A stretch of 7,695 bases of DNA, taken from NCBI GenBank assembly GCA_000004985.1, contig GG739116.1. One strand, written 5' to 3'. The position numbers and the translations under genes were made by a program. A model generated the notes under the pieces. It did no database searches and was not told the origin of the DNA. It saw nothing but the letters and a program-made list of their open reading frames with translations. This document shows, one piece after another, positions 1-7,695 of the stretch; positions within the stretch are counted from its first letter, which is position 1, and each line of letters starts with the position of its first letter. Source of the stretch: Naegleria gruberi. Lineage: Eukaryota.

Positions 1-650
1 TGATTTGGATGCATTGGATAAACCTTTGTCTTGAAACAATTAGAAGCTTGAGTCAACTTTTCAACAATTGAAACAGTTCCTCCAGCTCTAACTTCACTTT
101 CGAATACAGCTTTTGCCTTTTCCTTCTCAACTGGAACAGCATCAACCAATTTACCATTCACTTCCATTGCATAACCCATCATGGTTGCTCCATCAGGCAT
201 TGGCAACACTAATTCACCTTCAATTGTTTTACCATGTGGACTATTAAATGTCATAGTAGAAACCACTTGAACAATAGGATAAGTAACATGACATTTAACA
301 TGATGAGAAACTAATGGCAACAGTGTGGATGCTTTATCGGAAAACTTCTCTCCAGTTACTTGGACATGAATAAAACTATCGGTTGGAAGATCCTTCTTGC
401 TGGTAGTAGTTGTGGTTGCAATTTCTTTTTTGTCATCGGTTGCATTTGTGGTTGTATTTGTAGTTGAACTAATTGATGGTTGACTTGTTTCTTTTGGTTT
501 GTCCAAAACTTCAGTTTTTGCTGGAGTTGTTGCTGTTGGTTGTTTGCTGGATGTTGTTTCTGTGTTGTTTGGTGTCGTTGATGATTTTTCAAGTTCACTT
601 ATTTCTTCATCGACAGCAGCTGCTGATTTCTTACTTTTAAAAAAGCCCAT
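1..650 (-). CDS. 5' part (216 codons, runs off window at pos 1) of a VIT-domain protein (vault protein inter-alpha-trypsin family; probably VIT + vWA architecture). Basic N-terminus MGFFKSKKS, a Thr/Ser-rich linker, then the VIT domain.
   Basis: Minus-strand reading frame from ATG (650-648) down to pos 3 has no stop, and was checked codon by codon. Translation: MGFFKSKKSAAAVDEEISELEKSSTTPNNTETTSSKQPTATTPAKTEVLDKPKETSQPSISSTTNTTTNATDDKKEIATTTTTSKKDLPTDSFIHVQVTGEKFSDKASTLLPLVSHHVKCHVTYPIVQVVSTMTFNSPHGKTIEGELVLPMPDGATMMGYAMEVNGKLVDAVPVEKEKAKAVFESEVRAGGTVSIVEKLTQASNCFKTKVYPMHPN. The stretch LP.PD.A.v.G.ame.nG..v...V.EKE.AKA.fE.....G...S.VE.......F...V matches the VIT domain pattern of ITIH/VWA5A/PARP4-type proteins. 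An in-frame stop lies about 30 codons upstream of the ATG with no other ATG between. The six-frame track omits this ORF because its stop is outside the window. The track ORFs 356..598(-), 499..699(+) and 599..829(-) are other-frame shadows of this gene. Confidence 0.75.
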   Translation of the reverse strand, partial: MGFFKSKKSAAAVDEEISELEKSSTTPNNTETTSSKQPTATTPAKTEVLDKPKETSQPSISSTTNTTTNATDDKKEIATTTTTSKKDLPTDSFIHVQVTGEKFSDKASTLLPLVSHHVKCHVTYPIVQVVSTMTFNSPHGKTIEGELVLPMPDGATMMGYAMEVNGKLVDAVPVEKEKAKAVFESEVRAGGTVSIVEKLTQASNCFKTKVYPMHPN

Positions 651-938: not shown

Positions 939-984
939 TTGCATTCTTCATTAAATACTTTAATAATTCTCTAATATAACAAAT

Positions 985-1118
985 CACGTAGCGCAGTCAT
1001 TTATAGCAACGTTTATTGAAAGAGCTACGTTACAATTTTATTGAATGTATCAATTTCAATTTTGAATTGAATTACATACCAACGCAATTAACGCAACGTT
1101 AAATGACTGCGCTACGTT
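985..1118. repeat. R1: ~132-bp palindromic, MITE-like element with ~18-33 bp imperfect terminal inverted repeats (acgtagcgcagtcattta ... taaatgactgcgctacgt) and internal hairpins (attga-atgta-tcaat; ttcaatt-ttg-aattgaa at 1055-1071)
   Basis: Left arm 986-1003 is the exact reverse complement of 1100-1117. The extended arms (986-1018 vs reverse complement of 1086-1118) match imperfectly. The paired motif GCAACGTT-N10-GCTACGTT occurs in both arms (1006/1024 and 1093/1111). Confidence 0.6.
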
Positions 1119-1173
1119 AAAATTTTATTTTTTTTAAAGAAAAGGATTATTATTTTTAAATTTAATTTTATCA

Positions 1174-1419
1174 ATGAAAATAGAATTTGATAAAAATTTT
1201 AATATTTATGAATTTAAAGAAAATGAACAAGAAAAAGTTTCACCAATAATTAAAGATTTTAAAGGAAAAAGATCAAAATATTTTCCAAATTTAAATAATA
1301 CATCATATTTATCAGTAGATCAAGTTGAAACAGATTATAGAGCTCAAGTTAATTTTGATCCAATTCATGCACATATTAAAACTAAAAGAAAAACTGGAAT
1401 GAAAATTGTAAATAAATAA
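1174..1419 (+). CDS. Hypothetical small protein of 81 aa, lysine-rich and basic at the C-terminus, sitting between R1 and R2. No recognisable domain.
   Basis: The ORF is complete (ATG ... TAA), MKIEFDKNFNIYEFKENEQEKVSPIIKDFKGKRSKYFPNLNNTSYLSVDQVETDYRAQVNFDPIHAHIKTKRKTGMKIVNK. An 81-codon open frame in roughly 22%-GC DNA is unlikely by chance (about 0.91^81). Third codon positions are almost all A/T, unlike the neighbouring VIT and Rac genes. A T/A-rich tract lies 50 bp upstream. No homology can be assessed without a search. Confidence 0.35.
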   Translation: MKIEFDKNFNIYEFKENEQEKVSPIIKDFKGKRSKYFPNLNNTSYLSVDQVETDYRAQVNFDPIHAHIKTKRKTGMKIVNK

Positions 1420-1421
1420 AT

Positions 1422-1556
1422 TAATTATAGCAACGTTTATTGAAAGAGCTACGTTACAATTTTATTGATAGAGAGCAATGTATCAATTTCAATTTTGAAT
1501 TGAATGACATACAAATTTAATTAACGCAACGTTAAATGACTGCGCTACGTTAAAAT
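1422..1556. repeat. R2: second copy of the R element (~90% identical to R1 over ~130 bp) with a 9-bp insertion (tagagagca). It lacks the outer 18 bp of the left TIR and starts immediately after the stop codon of the 81-aa ORF.
   Basis: R2 (1427-1556) aligns to R1 (1004-1122), sharing tatagcaacgtttattgaaagagctacgttacaattttattga ... atgtatcaatttcaattttgaattgaat ... ttaacgcaacgttaaatgactgcgctacgttaaaattt. The right-arm motif taaatgactgcgctacgt is present at 1533-1550. The left outer arm is absent. Confidence 0.6.
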
Positions 1557-1575
1557 TTAAAATTATTAAATATAA

Positions 1576-1598: not shown

Positions 1599-1781
1599 CA
1601 CAATTACCTATCCCCTTAATGAACTAGGCAAATACCTAATTTCCATCCAGCTTTTAGTAGGGAATTATAGAAGATGTCACATTTCCAAAGAACATCAGAA
1701 AACTTGCAAAAAAAATAGCAAACAAAGCAGACAAGATTTTGAAAATTAATTTCNGGAGGATGAACTATTCATCAATAAAAC

Positions 1782-1865: not shown

Positions 1866-4800
1866 NNNNNNNNNNNNNNNNNNNNNNNNNNNNNNNNNNN
1901 NNNNNNNNNNNNNNNNNNNNNNNNNNNNNNNNNNNNNNNNNNNNNNNNNNNNNNNNNNNNNNNNNNNNNNNNNNNNNNNNNNNNNNNNNNNNNNNNNNNN
2001 NNNNNNNNNNNNNNNNNNNNNNNNNNNNNNNNNNNNNNNNNNNNNNNNNNNNNNNNNNNNNNNNNNNNNNNNNNNNNNNNNNNNNNNNNNNNNNNNNNNN
2101 NNNNNNNNNNNNNNNNNNNNNNNNNNNNNNNNNNNNNNNNNNNNNNNNNNNNNNNNNNNNNNNNNNNNNNNNNNNNNNNNNNNNNNNNNNNNNNNNNNNN
2201 NNNNNNNNNNNNNNNNNNNNNNNNNNNNNNNNNNNNNNNNNNNNNNNNNNNNNNNNNNNNNNNNNNNNNNNNNNNNNNNNNNNNNNNNNNNNNNNNNNNN
2301 NNNNNNNNNNNNNNNNNNNNNNNNNNNNNNNNNNNNNNNNNNNNNNNNNNNNNNNNNNNNNNNNNNNNNNNNNNNNNNNNNNNNNNNNNNNNNNNNNNNN
2401 NNNNNNNNNNNNNNNNNNNNNNNNNNNNNNNNNNNNNNNNNNNNNNNNNNNNNNNNNNNNNNNNNNNNNNNNNNNNNNNNNNNNNNNNNNNNNNNNNNNN
2501 NNNNNNNNNNNNNNNNNNNNNNNNNNNNNNNNNNNNNNNNNNNNNNNNNNNNNNNNNNNNNNNNNNNNNNNNNNNNNNNNNNNNNNNNNNNNNNNNNNNN
2601 NNNNNNNNNNNNNNNNNNNNNNNNNNNNNNNNNNNNNNNNNNNNNNNNNNNNNNNNNNNNNNNNNNNNNNNNNNNNNNNNNNNNNNNNNNNNNNNNNNNN
2701 NNNNNNNNNNNNNNNNNNNNNNNNNNNNNNNNNNNNNNNNNNNNNNNNNNNNNNNNNNNNNNNNNNNNNNNNNNNNNNNNNNNNNNNNNNNNNNNNNNNN
2801 NNNNNNNNNNNNNNNNNNNNNNNNNNNNNNNNNNNNNNNNNNNNNNNNNNNNNNNNNNNNNNNNNNNNNNNNNNNNNNNNNNNNNNNNNNNNNNNNNNNN
2901 NNNNNNNNNNNNNNNNNNNNNNNNNNNNNNNNNNNNNNNNNNNNNNNNNNNNNNNNNNNNNNNNNNNNNNNNNNNNNNNNNNNNNNNNNNNNNNNNNNNN
3001 NNNNNNNNNNNNNNNNNNNNNNNNNNNNNNNNNNNNNNNNNNNNNNNNNNNNNNNNNNNNNNNNNNNNNNNNNNNNNNNNNNNNNNNNNNNNNNNNNNNN
3101 NNNNNNNNNNNNNNNNNNNNNNNNNNNNNNNNNNNNNNNNNNNNNNNNNNNNNNNNNNNNNNNNNNNNNNNNNNNNNNNNNNNNNNNNNNNNNNNNNNNN
3201 NNNNNNNNNNNNNNNNNNNNNNNNNNNNNNNNNNNNNNNNNNNNNNNNNNNNNNNNNNNNNNNNNNNNNNNNNNNNNNNNNNNNNNNNNNNNNNNNNNNN
3301 NNNNNNNNNNNNNNNNNNNNNNNNNNNNNNNNNNNNNNNNNNNNNNNNNNNNNNNNNNNNNNNNNNNNNNNNNNNNNNNNNNNNNNNNNNNNNNNNNNNN
3401 NNNNNNNNNNNNNNNNNNNNNNNNNNNNNNNNNNNNNNNNNNNNNNNNNNNNNNNNNNNNNNNNNNNNNNNNNNNNNNNNNNNNNNNNNNNNNNNNNNNN
3501 NNNNNNNNNNNNNNNNNNNNNNNNNNNNNNNNNNNNNNNNNNNNNNNNNNNNNNNNNNNNNNNNNNNNNNNNNNNNNNNNNNNNNNNNNNNNNNNNNNNN
3601 NNNNNNNNNNNNNNNNNNNNNNNNNNNNNNNNNNNNNNNNNNNNNNNNNNNNNNNNNNNNNNNNNNNNNNNNNNNNNNNNNNNNNNNNNNNNNNNNNNNN
3701 NNNNNNNNNNNNNNNNNNNNNNNNNNNNNNNNNNNNNNNNNNNNNNNNNNNNNNNNNNNNNNNNNNNNNNNNNNNNNNNNNNNNNNNNNNNNNNNNNNNN
3801 NNNNNNNNNNNNNNNNNNNNNNNNNNNNNNNNNNNNNNNNNNNNNNNNNNNNNNNNNNNNNNNNNNNNNNNNNNNNNNNNNNNNNNNNNNNNNNNNNNNN
3901 NNNNNNNNNNNNNNNNNNNNNNNNNNNNNNNNNNNNNNNNNNNNNNNNNNNNNNNNNNNNNNNNNNNNNNNNNNNNNNNNNNNNNNNNNNNNNNNNNNNN
4001 NNNNNNNNNNNNNNNNNNNNNNNNNNNNNNNNNNNNNNNNNNNNNNNNNNNNNNNNNNNNNNNNNNNNNNNNNNNNNNNNNNNNNNNNNNNNNNNNNNNN
4101 NNNNNNNNNNNNNNNNNNNNNNNNNNNNNNNNNNNNNNNNNNNNNNNNNNNNNNNNNNNNNNNNNNNNNNNNNNNNNNNNNNNNNNNNNNNNNNNNNNNN
4201 NNNNNNNNNNNNNNNNNNNNNNNNNNNNNNNNNNNNNNNNNNNNNNNNNNNNNNNNNNNNNNNNNNNNNNNNNNNNNNNNNNNNNNNNNNNNNNNNNNNN
4301 NNNNNNNNNNNNNNNNNNNNNNNNNNNNNNNNNNNNNNNNNNNNNNNNNNNNNNNNNNNNNNNNNNNNNNNNNNNNNNNNNNNNNNNNNNNNNNNNNNNN
4401 NNNNNNNNNNNNNNNNNNNNNNNNNNNNNNNNNNNNNNNNNNNNNNNNNNNNNNNNNNNNNNNNNNNNNNNNNNNNNNNNNNNNNNNNNNNNNNNNNNNN
4501 NNNNNNNNNNNNNNNNNNNNNNNNNNNNNNNNNNNNNNNNNNNNNNNNNNNNNNNNNNNNNNNNNNNNNNNNNNNNNNNNNNNNNNNNNNNNNNNNNNNN
4601 NNNNNNNNNNNNNNNNNNNNNNNNNNNNNNNNNNNNNNNNNNNNNNNNNNNNNNNNNNNNNNNNNNNNNNNNNNNNNNNNNNNNNNNNNNNNNNNNNNNN
4701 NNNNNNNNNNNNNNNNNNNNNNNNNNNNNNNNNNNNNNNNNNNNNNNNNNNNNNNNNNNNNNNNNNNNNNNNNNNNNNNNNNNNNNNNNNNNNNNNNNNN

Positions 4801-6594
4801 NNNNNNNNNNNNNNNNNNNNNNNNNNNNNNNNNNNNNNNNNNNNNNNNNNNNNNNNNNNNNNNNNNNNNNNNNNNNNNNNNNNNNNNNNNNNNNNNNNNN
4901 NNNNNNNNNNNNNNNNNNNNNNNNNNNNNNNNNNNNNNNNNNNNNNNNNNNNNNNNNNNNNNNNNNNNNNNNNNNNNNNNNNNNNNNNNNNNNNNNNNNN
5001 NNNNNNNNNNNNNNNNNNNNNNNNNNNNNNNNNNNNNNNNNNNNNNNNNNNNNNNNNNNNNNNNNNNNNNNNNNNNNNNNNNNNNNNNNNNNNNNNNNNN
5101 NNNNNNNNNNNNNNNNNNNNNNNNNNNNNNNNNNNNNNNNNNNNNNNNNNNNNNNNNNNNNNNNNNNNNNNNNNNNNNNNNNNNNNNNNNNNNNNNNNNN
5201 NNNNNNNNNNNNNNNNNNNNNNNNNNNNNNNNNNNNNNNNNNNNNNNNNNNNNNNNNNNNNNNNNNNNNNNNNNNNNNNNNNNNNNNNNNNNNNNNNNNN
5301 NNNNNNNNNNNNNNNNNNNNNNNNNNNNNNNNNNNNNNNNNNNNNNNNNNNNNNNNNNNNNNNNNNNNNNNNNNNNNNNNNNNNNNNNNNNNNNNNNNNN
5401 NNNNNNNNNNNNNNNNNNNNNNNNNNNNNNNNNNNNNNNNNNNNNNNNNNNNNNNNNNNNNNNNNNNNNNNNNNNNNNNNNNNNNNNNNNNNNNNNNNNN
5501 NNNNNNNNNNNNNNNNNNNNNNNNNNNNNNNNNNNNNNNNNNNNNNNNNNNNNNNNNNNNNNNNNNNNNNNNNNNNNNNNNNNNNNNNNNNNNNNNNNNN
5601 NNNNNNNNNNNNNNNNNNNNNNNNNNNNNNNNNNNNNNNNNNNNNNNNNNNNNNNNNNNNNNNNNNNNNNNNNNNNNNNNNNNNNNNNNNNNNNNNNNNN
5701 NNNNNNNNNNNNNNNNNNNNNNNNNNNNNNNNNNNNNNNNNNNNNNNNNNNNNNNNNNNNNNNNNNNNNNNNNNNNNNNNNNNNNNNNNNNNNNNNNNNN
5801 NNNNNNNNNNNNNNNNNNNNNNNNNNNNNNNNNNNNNNNNNNNNNNNNNNNNNNNNNNNNNNNNNNNNNNNNNNNNNNNNNNNNNNNNNNNNNNNNNNNN
5901 NNNNNNNNNNNNNNNNNNNNNNNNNNNNNNNNNNNNNNNNNNNNNNNNNNNNNNNNNNNNNNNNNNNNNNNNNNNNNNNNNNNNNNNNNNNNNNNNNNNN
6001 NNNNNNNNNNNNNNNNNNNNNNNNNNNNNNNNNNNNNNNNNNNNNNNNNNNNNNNNNNNNNNNNNNNNNNNNNNNNNNNNNNNNNNNNNNNNNNNNNNNN
6101 NNNNNNNNNNNNNNNNNNNNNNNNNNNNNNNNNNNNNNNNNNNNNNNNNNNNNNNNNNNNNNNNNNNNNNNNNNNNNNNNNNNNNNNNNNNNNNNNNNNN
6201 NNNNNNNNNNNNNNNNNNNNNNNNNNNNNNNNNNNNNNNNNNNNNNNNNNNNNNNNNNNNNNNNNNNNNNNNNNNNNNNNNNNNNNNNNNNNNNNNNNNN
6301 NNNNNNNNNNNNNNNNNNNNNNNNNNNNNNNNNNNNNNNNNNNNNNNNNNNNNNNNNNNNNNNNNNNNNNNNNNNNNNNNNNNNNNNNNNNNNNNNNNNN
6401 NNNNNNNNNNNNNNNNNNNNNNNNNNNNNNNNNNNNNNNNNNNNNNNNNNNNNNNNNNNNNNNNNNNNNNNNNNNNNNNNNNNNNNNNNNNNNNNNNNNN
6501 NNNNNNNNNNNNNNNNNNNNNNNNNNNNNNNNNNNNNNNNNNNNNNNNNNNNNNNNNNNNNNNNNNNNNNNNNNNNNNNNNNNNNNNNNNNNNN
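1866..6594. other. 4729-bp run of N: an assembly gap or a deliberately masked segment. Nothing can be inferred from it.
   Basis: Uninterrupted n characters. The ORF-track entries 1782..6623(+), 1806..6638(-) and 1817..6631(-) are artefacts of translating N as X. Confidence 1.
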
Positions 6595-6998: not shown

Positions 6999-7274
6999 TT
7001 ACAACAGACTACATTTGCCAGACTTCTTCTTTTCTGAGCTTTGATCTGGACTCTTTGGATCCAAAACACATTCGATAACATAGTTGAAAGTTTCCTTCAA
7101 TCCTTCTTGTGATTTAGCAGAACATTCCGAATAGTATTGAGCTCCAACTTCCTTGGCTACTTTTTGTCCTTCTTCTGAAGACACTACTTGTAATCCTTCT
7201 CTTTGAAGATAGTCTTTATCCTTACGAAGATCAGCCTTAGTTCCTGTGAGAACAATTGGCACTTTTGGACAGTG
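6999..7274 (-). CDS. Rac/Rho-family small GTPase, terminal exon (91 codons + stop): HCPKVPIVLTGTKADLRKDKDYLQREGLQVVSSEEGQKVAKEVGAQYYSECSAKSQEGLKETFNYVIECVLDPKSPDQSSEKKKSGKCSLL*
   Basis: Contains the G4 motif TKxD (TGTKADLR), the G5 motif ECSAK, a polybasic stretch and the CaaX box CSLL directly before TAA (7001-6999). Acceptor AG (plus-strand ct 7275-7276) preceded by tttaaatag. Reading frame is continuous with the upstream exon, giving ...PEVKH|HCPK... Confidence 0.85.
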   Translation of the reverse strand, partial: HCPKVPIVLTGTKADLRKDKDYLQREGLQVVSSEEGQKVAKEVGAQYYSECSAKSQEGLKETFNYVIECVLDPKSPDQSSEKKKSGKCSLL

Positions 7275-7394
7275 CTATTTAAATAATAAAGTTGTTTGTT
7301 TGTTTACATGCATGTAACAACAGATATGTTCAACATGTTGTTAAAAGTATAAAGAATAAATAAATCTTTTCAAGTGGTGTAGAGTACTACTTAC

Positions 7395-7515
7395 ATGTTT
7401 AACTTCCGGAACCCACTTGGCCTTTACGTTCATTAAACTTGTATGATTGACAACAGAGAAGCAGACGAGGAAAACTTGAGCATCAGGATAAGACAATGGT
7501 CGCAAACGATCATAG
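7395..7515 (-). CDS. Rac/Rho-family GTPase, internal exon (121 nt, phase 2 to 0): (D)[40 protein letters not shown]
   Basis: Flanked by an acceptor ...aataattttcag and a donor gtaagtag. Intron 7275-7394 is 120 bp and intron 7516-7615 is 100 bp, both AT-rich. [20 protein letters not shown] and KWVPEV are near-invariant Rac/Cdc42 blocks. Confidence 0.85.
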
Positions 7516-7615
7516 CTGAAAATTATTTAGCCTAAAAATTCTTCTACTAGAAGATTACTTACTCACTATTAGAAAGTACAATAAATATTGTTGATGAAAA
7601 TTTGAAATTACTTAC

Positions 7616-7695
7616 TCTTGACCAGCTGTATCCCACAAACCCAAAGATACTGTTGTATTCTTGTACATTACGTTAGCAGACGTATTTCACAAAAA
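7616..7695 (-). CDS. Rac/Rho-family GTPase, upstream exon (partial): ...NTSANVMYKNTTVSLGLWDTAGQE followed by donor GTAAGT. An in-frame TGA (7689-7687) lies 7 codons before SANVM, so the true 5' limit is unresolved.
   Basis: The exon ends in ...ggt caa ga|gtaagtaat, a phase-2 donor that joins to c-tat-gat in the next exon. LGLWDTAGQE is the Rac-type G3 switch II motif. SANVM + 7 residues + LGLW has the same spacing as Rac1 (YSANVMVDGKPVNLGLW). The stop codon and the absence of any AG between 7695 and 7669 are anomalous. Confidence 0.7.

Follow-up and report, generated by a model that had tools for sequence, protein, structure and literature searches.

Prokaryotic and viral integrases that act at tRNA genes leave an exact direct repeat of ~20 bp, which overlaps the end of the gene and regenerates an intact copy of it. 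With few exceptions, elements of this integrase type make use of the 3' portion of the tRNA (anticodon or T-loop), and they encode a tyrosine or serine integrase. The Dada DNA transposons, by comparison, have a fixed insertion site within multicopy tRNA or snRNA genes (Kojima & Jurka 2013, PMC3706591). Dada elements are 4.7-11 kb in length, generate target-site duplications of 6-7 bp and code for a zinc-finger-bearing DDE transposase; they have no true terminal inverted repeats, their sub-terminal inverted repeats also occur in the target gene, and Naegleria is not among their listed hosts (PMC3706591). In Perkinsus, the Dada-tI families (tIA and tIB) are inserted in tRNA-Ile, with a proposed duplication of TAGCTC in the A box (PMC3706591).

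The tDNA count of Naegleria gruberi is 924 (PMC2888827), an ample pool of targets for an element that targets tRNA genes. We analyzed a complete N. gruberi scaffold of 7,695 bp (the window), for which an initial annotation made from the letters alone had described a repeated bipartite motif beside a tRNA gene. We find that the motif belongs to a repeat, R, which is present twice in an AT-rich block, and that this block is probably a tRNA-gene-associated repeat or insertion. The reading that we prefer, tentatively and with somewhat less than even confidence, is that R consists of tRNA-derived modules and belongs to an element, mobile or integrated but not autonomous, that occupies the tRNA D-loop and is itself tRNA-derived or tRNA-targeting.

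The 635-bp block and its flanking 23-bp repeats

ARAGORN identified no tRNA besides the tRNA-Ile(AAT) gene at 866-938 (Table 1), which has a strict B box at 887 and an A-box core at 931 and has the VIT gene on one side and an ORF starting at 1782 on the other. A 31-aa ORF overlapping the tRNA had no database record in an exact-sequence look-up. Two exact copies of the 23-bp direct repeat TACCGACTGAGCTACGCCAGCTT, one of them inside the tRNA gene, bound the block, so that its breakpoint falls between tRNA-Ile nt 21 and 22 at this single locus. As a consequence of the 23-bp duplication, the intact tRNA is retained. The GC content of the block is 22.4% and that of the spacer between the two R copies is 17%, compared to 31-33% in the flanking intergenic sequence and 33-37% in host exons. 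It should be noted that the 23-bp fragment on the far side of the block could be a remnant of a second tRNA-Ile gene; if so, the case for a duplication comes down to its 2 leader nt. The 23-bp tRNA duplication, the contrasting composition of the block and its coding ORF were absent from the initial annotation, and we regard them as the most important features.

Table 1. Coordinates of the features in the 7,695-bp window
Feature	Position	Strand	Remarks
VIT-domain protein gene	1-650	minus	100% identical to N. gruberi predicted protein
Intact tRNA-Ile(AAT) gene	866-938	minus	ARAGORN; Rfam tRNA 59.9 bits, E 2e-11
23-bp direct repeat, copy 1, inside intact tRNA gene	918-940	minus	2 leader nt + tRNA nt 1-21; 23/23 identical
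AT-rich block, 635 bp (probable insertion)	941-1575		Between the 23-bp repeat copies; holds R1, ORF and R2
Module c	986-1003	plus	Perfect 18-nt inverted copy of module b outer end (ACGTAGCGCAGTCATTTA); R1 left terminal inverted repeat; holds A-box core
R1	1001-1122
Module a1, tRNA-5'-half-like (tRNA nt 4-35)	1001-1031	minus	GCAACGTT at 1006, GCTACGTT at 1024; 22/30 identities, one gap; BLASTN E 0.04
R1 central palindrome (ttcaatt-ttg-aattgaa)	1044-1086		Minus strand: B-box-like TTCAATTC
Module b1, tRNA-5'-half-like	1087-1118	minus	GCAACGTT at 1093, GCTACGTT at 1111; R1 right terminal inverted repeat; 22/31 identities, one gap
Orphan ORF (ORF81), 81 aa, lysine-rich, basic	1174-1419	plus	In 302-bp R1-R2 spacer
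R2	1425-1559
Module a2, identical to a1	1424-1455	minus	GCAACGTT at 1430, GCTACGTT at 1448; 23/31 identities; BLASTN E 0.015
Module b2, identical to b1	1520-1551	minus	GCAACGTT at 1526, GCTACGTT at 1544
23-bp direct repeat, copy 2, orphan tRNA-Ile 5' fragment	1576-1598	minus	Leader AA + nt 1-21; ends at D-loop/D-stem boundary
N stretch (unreadable)	1866-6594		4.7-kb gap
Rho/Rac GTPase gene, intron-containing	6999-7695	minus

The ORF in the spacer, ORF81, has GC fractions of 0.34, 0.22 and 0.02 at codon positions 1, 2 and 3, respectively, and none of 20,000 permutations was as extreme; its stop-free run has a p value of ~0.03. Given this codon-position periodicity, ORF81 is a coding sequence, now or until recently. 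Its codon usage is foreign-looking and very AT-rich, with a GC3 of 0.02 vs. 0.22 and 0.27 in the two host genes. We detected no homologs of ORF81 by word-index search, exhaustive phmmer, Pfam, exact-sequence look-up or tblastn of IMG/VR, and its AlphaFold model was uninformative (pLDDT 54), with no recognisable DNA-binding fold. No integrase, transposase or reverse transcriptase was found in the readable part of the window, in which positions 1866-6594 are N.

Repeat architecture and the bipartite motif

R is an AT-rich repeat of 122-135 bp. R2 matches R1 without a mismatch over 44 nt and is 89% identical to it over 94 nt. A 9-bp indel and a few clustered substitutions set the two copies apart, and they are arranged in tandem with a period of 424-433 bp. 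Each R contains two arms, a and b, that are 77% identical to one another across 44 nt. The terminal inverted repeat of R1 is perfect over 18 nt and extends to 33 nt at 82% identity, while R2 has no left arm, since no inverted module c lies ahead of a2. At the scale of the whole block, module c (986-1020) and b2 (1516-1550) form sub-terminal inverted repeats of 35 nt with 80% identity, which sit 45 and 25 bp in from the block ends. These sub-terminal arms contain CGTAGCGCAGTC, an 11/12 copy of tRNA nt 6-17 (CGTAGCTCAGTC in the tRNA). On direct reading of the flanks, the terminal inverted repeats of R1 have no target-site duplication next to them (ACAAATC precedes and TAAAATT follows the ACGT...ACGT ends), and neither R1 nor R2 has a flanking target-site duplication of its own or a common, A-rich or simple-repeat tail.

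The initial annotation had described a bipartite GCAACGTT-N10-GCTACGTT motif occurring four times, with eight half-sites, and this description is borne out by the counts. Eight exact GCWACGTT sites are present, all on the plus strand (Table 1), compared to 0.09 expected in shuffled sequences, and 0 of 200 shuffles reached eight. The sites form four pairs, in each of which the starts are exactly 18 bp apart (N10). Seven of the eight positions originally given were correct, the exception being 1431, which should read 1430, and the spacing is invariably 18 bp rather than 17-18 bp. The additional site reported at 985-992 is indeed inverted, but it matches the motif at only 7 of 8 positions (it reads CACGTAGC, with reverse complement GCTACGTG) and constitutes the tip of the perfect 18-nt terminal inverted repeat (986-1003/1100-1117). 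The AACGTT palindrome that had been ascribed to each of the paired sites is found in the GCAACGTT sites, whereas the GCTACGTT sites share only the ACGT core.

Since R2 is a copy of R1 and the a and b arms are paralogous, the eight sites did not arise independently. The motif recurs four times because R holds two modules and is itself present twice; the four pairs thus reduce to two independent pairs, which are themselves the 77% identical a and b. If the arms come from a tRNA, the apparent binding-site motif would be two tRNA segments multiplied by the repeat structure and should not be counted as eight independent sites.

Pattern scans of viral, metagenome and prokaryotic contigs and BLASTN of plasmids and phages, collections that do not include the N. 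gruberi genome, turned up no other instance of R or the block. Four metagenome matches to the 18-mer were attributed to chance, as the adjoining AACGTTGC was absent from them. An orthologous empty site was sought at the Rac ortholog loci of N. fowleri and Willaertia, which were non-syntenic and had neither a tRNA nor the motif, while contigs with VIT homologs contained too little upstream sequence for an empty-site comparison.

Resemblance of the arms to the 5' half of tRNA-Ile

Read on the minus strand, the sense strand of the tRNA, a and b can each be aligned to tRNA-Ile nt 6-36; 22-23 of 31 positions are identical, with one 1-nt gap, and the arm core CGTAGC[T/G]CAGTC matches tRNA-Ile at 11 of 12 positions. 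In this alignment, the half-sites correspond to the reverse complements of tRNA nt 4-11 (GGCGTAGC, AACGTAGC in the arms) and nt 23-30 (AGCGTTGG, AACGTTGC in the arms), which are spaced by 19 nt in the tRNA vs. 18 nt in the arms. Derivation of the arms from a tRNA would therefore explain the bipartite motif and its fixed spacing without invoking a factor. The positions that a and b have in common are mostly those that match the tRNA. Sites resembling CGTAGCNCAGTC were likewise in excess, with 7 in 680 bp compared to 0.1 expected, and 6 of the 7 are in tRNA orientation.

The proposal that the arms resemble the 5' half of the tRNA holds at the level of sequence identity (22-23/31), although its statistical support is marginal and varies with the scoring scheme. 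Shuffling, the control by which this similarity was to be judged, gave p = 0.016 with strict local scoring and p = 0.005 with neutral scoring of the non-redundant insert. Shuffle p values of 0.005 to 0.03 are no more than marginal, and the signal was lost (p 0.1-0.7) once the target was made larger and gaps more costly. BLASTN of the arms against the tRNA gave E values of 0.015 for a2 and 0.04 for a1, compared to 0.13 for the best match elsewhere in the window; however, unrelated parts of the window produced 14/16 matches to the tRNA, and their raw scores were similar to those of the arms. Module b together with the central hairpin could be extended to tRNA nt 5-61 with p ~0.001 under a transition-tolerant scoring that was chosen post hoc. 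The tRNA covariance model (RF00005) had no match in 940-1865 at E<=10, the orphan fragment at 1576-1598 included. A homology of R to the native upstream flank of the tRNA (AATTGTGAA vs. AATTGTAA) was also considered and was not significant.

From these alignments, we infer, with marginal significance, that the arms are homologous to a tRNA. The arms span both sides of the nt 21/22 breakpoint and thus are not relics of earlier 23-bp duplications; on the evidence of the alignment, they appear to come from, or to mimic, a continuous 5' half of a tRNA. Among the readings offered in the initial annotation, a tRNA-derived element is the best supported, as the arms align to nt 6-36 in tRNA orientation and the block is bounded by a tRNA duplication, with the statistics remaining marginal.

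The suggestion that the arms mimic an A box that recruits TFIIIC and the pol III machinery fared less well. The A-box core TRGCNNAGT is found in modules b and c and is missing from a. In the R1 centre, the minus-strand TTCAATTC loosely resembles a B box (TTCRANNC), with G53 lost, and lies 43 nt from the A-box core, compared to 46 nt in the real tRNA. R thus has no acceptable B box, and for this reason A-box/TFIIIC recruitment is not supported; the covariance model offers no match either. The minus strand of R and the interval from R1 to the tRNA contain no T4 terminator.

Folding confirmed the internal hairpins that had been noted from the letters. The structured RNA of ~130 nt proposed along with them is plausible for R1, which forms a long hairpin (z -6.0 as DNA, z -6.9 as minus-strand RNA), but not for R2, which is missing its left arm and folds non-significantly (z -1.8). 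Matches to Rfam miRNA, snoRNA and mt-tmRNA families over R were far below the gathering scores (30 bits vs. 100), and we dismissed them as hairpin look-alikes.

Alternative readings and comparison with known elements

Could the likeness to the tRNA be fortuitous? R would then be an AT-rich palindromic repeat of the MITE or foldback kind, or a captured foreign piece, and its proximity to the tRNA gene would be incidental or reflect targeting upstream of tRNA genes only. Such a coincidence would be compatible with the marginal, scoring-dependent significance (p 0.005 to 0.7; E 0.015-0.04), with the 14 of 16 tRNA alignments in unrelated parts of the window and with the lack of a cloverleaf or covariance-model match; moreover, a and b are paralogs and so provide one observation rather than two. 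Yet the arms match the tRNA segment whose duplicate marks the edge of the block, the match lies right at the tip of the terminal inverted repeat, the B-like box lies at a tRNA-like spacing, and the positions common to a and b are mostly tRNA-matching. We therefore consider chance resemblance unlikely. Local rearrangement without any mobile element also seems improbable to us. Here, a fragile tRNA gene would have broken repeatedly and been repaired by template switching, with partial direct and inverted copies of its 5' region, captured AT-rich filler and a duplication of R plus spacer as the result and the arms left as functionless pseudogene debris. This scenario would accommodate the orientation of the tRNA-like motifs (6 of 7 in tRNA orientation, all within 680 bp of the gene), the tandem R1/R2 arrangement with its 424-433-bp period, the perfect 18-nt inverted copy, which fold-back priming would make, and the failure to find a transposition enzyme or a short target-site duplication. 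It is harder to reconcile with a strongly periodic ORF of non-host codon usage, which would mean that the filler was taken from coding DNA of very high AT content, and with sharp block boundaries that coincide exactly with the 23-bp duplication. In addition, arms that are ~72% identical to the tRNA, against 100% for the 23-bp copies, imply at least two separate episodes.

The paired AACGTWGC sites might instead be functional, being bound by a dimeric protein that is encoded by the host or by the element (possibly the product of ORF81), or R might give rise to a pol III or hairpin small RNA. The half-sites within an arm are more alike (7/8) than their tRNA counterparts (5/8) and are held at a fixed spacing of 18 bp, the minus strand lacks a T4 terminator over R and the R1-to-tRNA interval, R1 folds strongly (z -6 to -7), and module b carries the A-box core. 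We nevertheless find a functional role highly unlikely to be the explanation, given that R has no B box, that R2 is unable to form the long hairpin (z -1.8), that Rfam matches are sub-threshold (30 bits vs. a gathering score of 100), and that ORF81 has no recognisable DNA-binding fold (pLDDT 54); two near-identical copies also have no power for covariation. Several narrower candidates were rejected. The Mimivirus early-promoter octamer AAAATTGA occurs in the R centre with 2 matches vs. 1.2 expected, and a CRESS-like nonanucleotide (TAATATAAC) at 971-979 has one mismatch, lies outside any hairpin loop and is expected by chance in AT-rich DNA. A nuclear copy of mitochondrial DNA is compatible with the GC content but unlikely, as ORF81 matches no annotated protein. 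R1 and R2 are direct repeats as in an LTR element or TRIM, but TG..CA ends, a primer-binding site, a polypurine tract and a short duplication are all lacking.

The reading of R as tRNA-derived modules in an element at the D-loop, which we favour with the reserve stated above, draws on the motif, the excess of CGTAGCNCAGTC-like sites, the nt 6-36 alignment and its nt 5-61 extension, the box spacing, the 23-bp duplication, the GC contrast, the periodicity of the ORF, the sub-terminal repeats, the Dada precedent and the tDNA pool. Weighing against it are the marginal tRNA similarity, the lack of a covariance match, of a second copy in the collections searched, of a recombination enzyme and of a target-site duplication at R1, the missing left arm of R2 and the possible stump of a second tRNA. 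Under this reading, R would have been assembled from decayed 5' tRNA gene copies, namely the direct modules a and b (about nt 4-36), with module b plus the central hairpin possibly covering nt 4-61, and with the inverted 18-nt piece c added in R1. The block would then comprise R1, the 81-codon gene and R2, lodged in a nuclear tRNA-Ile(AAT) gene, at its D-loop, and flanked by 23-bp copies. It would most likely have entered by conservative site-specific (att-type) recombination, or else through a long staggered cut. The tRNA-like arms may be a vestige of tRNA origin, or they may be recognition sequences for the integration machinery that are common to element and target, as in Dada. The empty tRNA-Ile site is predicted to read GGTAATTGTGAA followed directly by GCTGGCG, and the circular junction of the excised block is predicted to be GAATGC-AAGCTGGCGTAGCTCAGTCGGTA-TTATATT.

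Both mobility and the mechanism of integration are matters that we infer from one locus, which cannot prove a mobile element. Even if the block is a mobile or integrated element, any single integration mechanism would, at best, be rather unlikely to be the right one. By analogy with integrase systems, an exact 23-bp repeat that regenerates the tRNA end would be a signature of att-type recombination. The fully specified version of this route, in which a Naegleria element entered the tRNA-Ile D-loop by att-type recombination, brought its own tRNA 5' end to regenerate the gene and used tRNA-mimicking hairpin arms as recognition sites, is distinctly unlikely as a whole; ORF81 would in that case be a possible directionality or DNA-binding factor. 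Were it true, it would represent a eukaryotic nuclear mirror image, at the 5' end, of the prokaryotic targeting of tRNA genes by integrases.

Comparison with the integrase-type elements reveals a number of shared features: repeats that are identical at 23/23 positions and overlap the tRNA end, a tRNA that remains intact (59.9 bits), contrasting composition, an orphan gene and motifs near both junctions. The locus differs from them in that the 5' part of the tRNA, at the D-loop, is involved, the host is a eukaryote, and the readable sequence contains no integrase. The block is similar to Dada in that it sits inside a multicopy small-RNA gene, at tRNA-Ile nt 21/22 in this single locus, and in that its 35-nt sub-terminal inverted repeats carry target sequence (11/12 of tRNA nt 6-17). 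In contrast with Dada, the duplication spans 23 bp rather than 6-7 bp, although a 6-7-bp duplication combined with element-borne tRNA sequence is possible, and no DDE transposase was seen, the sole ORF of the block being an 81-aa orphan and positions 1866-6594 being N. Duplications made by target-primed reverse transcription cover a size range that also includes 23 bp.

R itself shares with tRNA-derived SINEs a unit of ~130 bp, a tRNA-like 5' head, an A-box core and B-like box at tRNA spacing, and a sense strand without T4. The B box of R is degenerate, however, and the R copies neither end in an A-rich or simple-repeat tail nor have target-site duplications of their own. R1 is also bounded by perfect terminal inverted repeats, a feature absent from SINEs. 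R1 also resembles a MITE or foldback element in its length (132 bp), its 18-bp perfect (33-bp imperfect) terminal inverted repeat, its AT-richness and its strong hairpin, while it differs in that no target-site duplication abuts its repeats and in that R2 is missing one terminus. The catalogue of transposable elements in Heterolobosea is poor, and the tDNA expansion of N. gruberi (924 tDNAs) would be easier to account for with a tRNA-derived or tRNA-targeting element. If the block is such an element, the gene-internal, gene-preserving targeting of small-RNA genes that is exemplified by Dada in animals and Perkinsus and by the integrases of prokaryotes would extend to a deep-branching eukaryote.

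Differences between the repeats and T runs on the tRNA-coding strand

The two AT-rich repeat copies with tRNA-like arms, R1 and R2, were compared with each other and with the tRNA-Ile(AAT) gene. Relative to R1, R2 carries a 9-bp insertion, TAGAGAGCA (1469-1477), and a group of closely spaced substitutions, CCAACGCAA against CAAATTTAA (1073-1086 versus 1506-1519). Since this cluster removes it from R2, the 8-mer GCGTTGGT, which matches nucleotides 24-31 of the tRNA exactly, is present in R1 only.

On the minus strand, no run of at least four T was observed from R1 to the tRNA terminator (855-860) or inside R2. A pol III transcript begun in R1 could, in principle, continue into the tRNA. Because ~2.7 such runs would be expected from composition in 941-1118 by our own estimate, their absence from this stretch is no more than suggestive.

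Features of the window
Feature	Position	Strand	Remarks
VIT-domain protein, 5' exon	1-650	-	100% identity to N. gruberi partial predicted protein
T-run-free stretches	941-1118 and 1425-1556	-	run of four or more T sought
Orphan ORF, 81 aa, lysine-rich	1174-1419	+	extreme codon-position bias
Lone N	1754		
Run of N, 4,729 bp	1866-6594		scaffold gap or mask
Rho/Rac-type GTPase gene with intron(s)	6999-7695	-	

The ORF between R1 and R2

The 81-aa ORF has a GC3 of 0.02, compared to 0.22-0.27 in the adjacent host genes, and no homologs of it were found among ~15 billion proteins. It has the appearance of a genuine gene that came from a foreign or AT-rich source.

Flanking sequence and host genes

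At 1616-1685 (+), within the native flank upstream of the tRNA, Rfam gave a weak hit to mitochondrion-encoded tmRNA. With 24 bits (E 0.14), this hit stays below the gathering score of 65 and is probably due to chance. Farther along, an ORF from 1782 begins MEKAKKKKLVSLQREEIFSDDICFEIIS..., which we take to resemble the start of an F-box protein, and enters the long run of N, within which any gene or autonomous element would be unreadable.

The N-terminal region of the VIT-domain protein is Ser/Thr-rich, and the identity of this protein to the N. gruberi prediction establishes that the window spans an entire scaffold. At the other end, the scaffold is not syntenic with the GTPase neighbourhoods in N. 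fowleri and Willaertia magna. The GTPase itself ends in a CSLL prenylation box, and it shares 89% identity with a protein of N. fowleri and 71% with one of W. magna.
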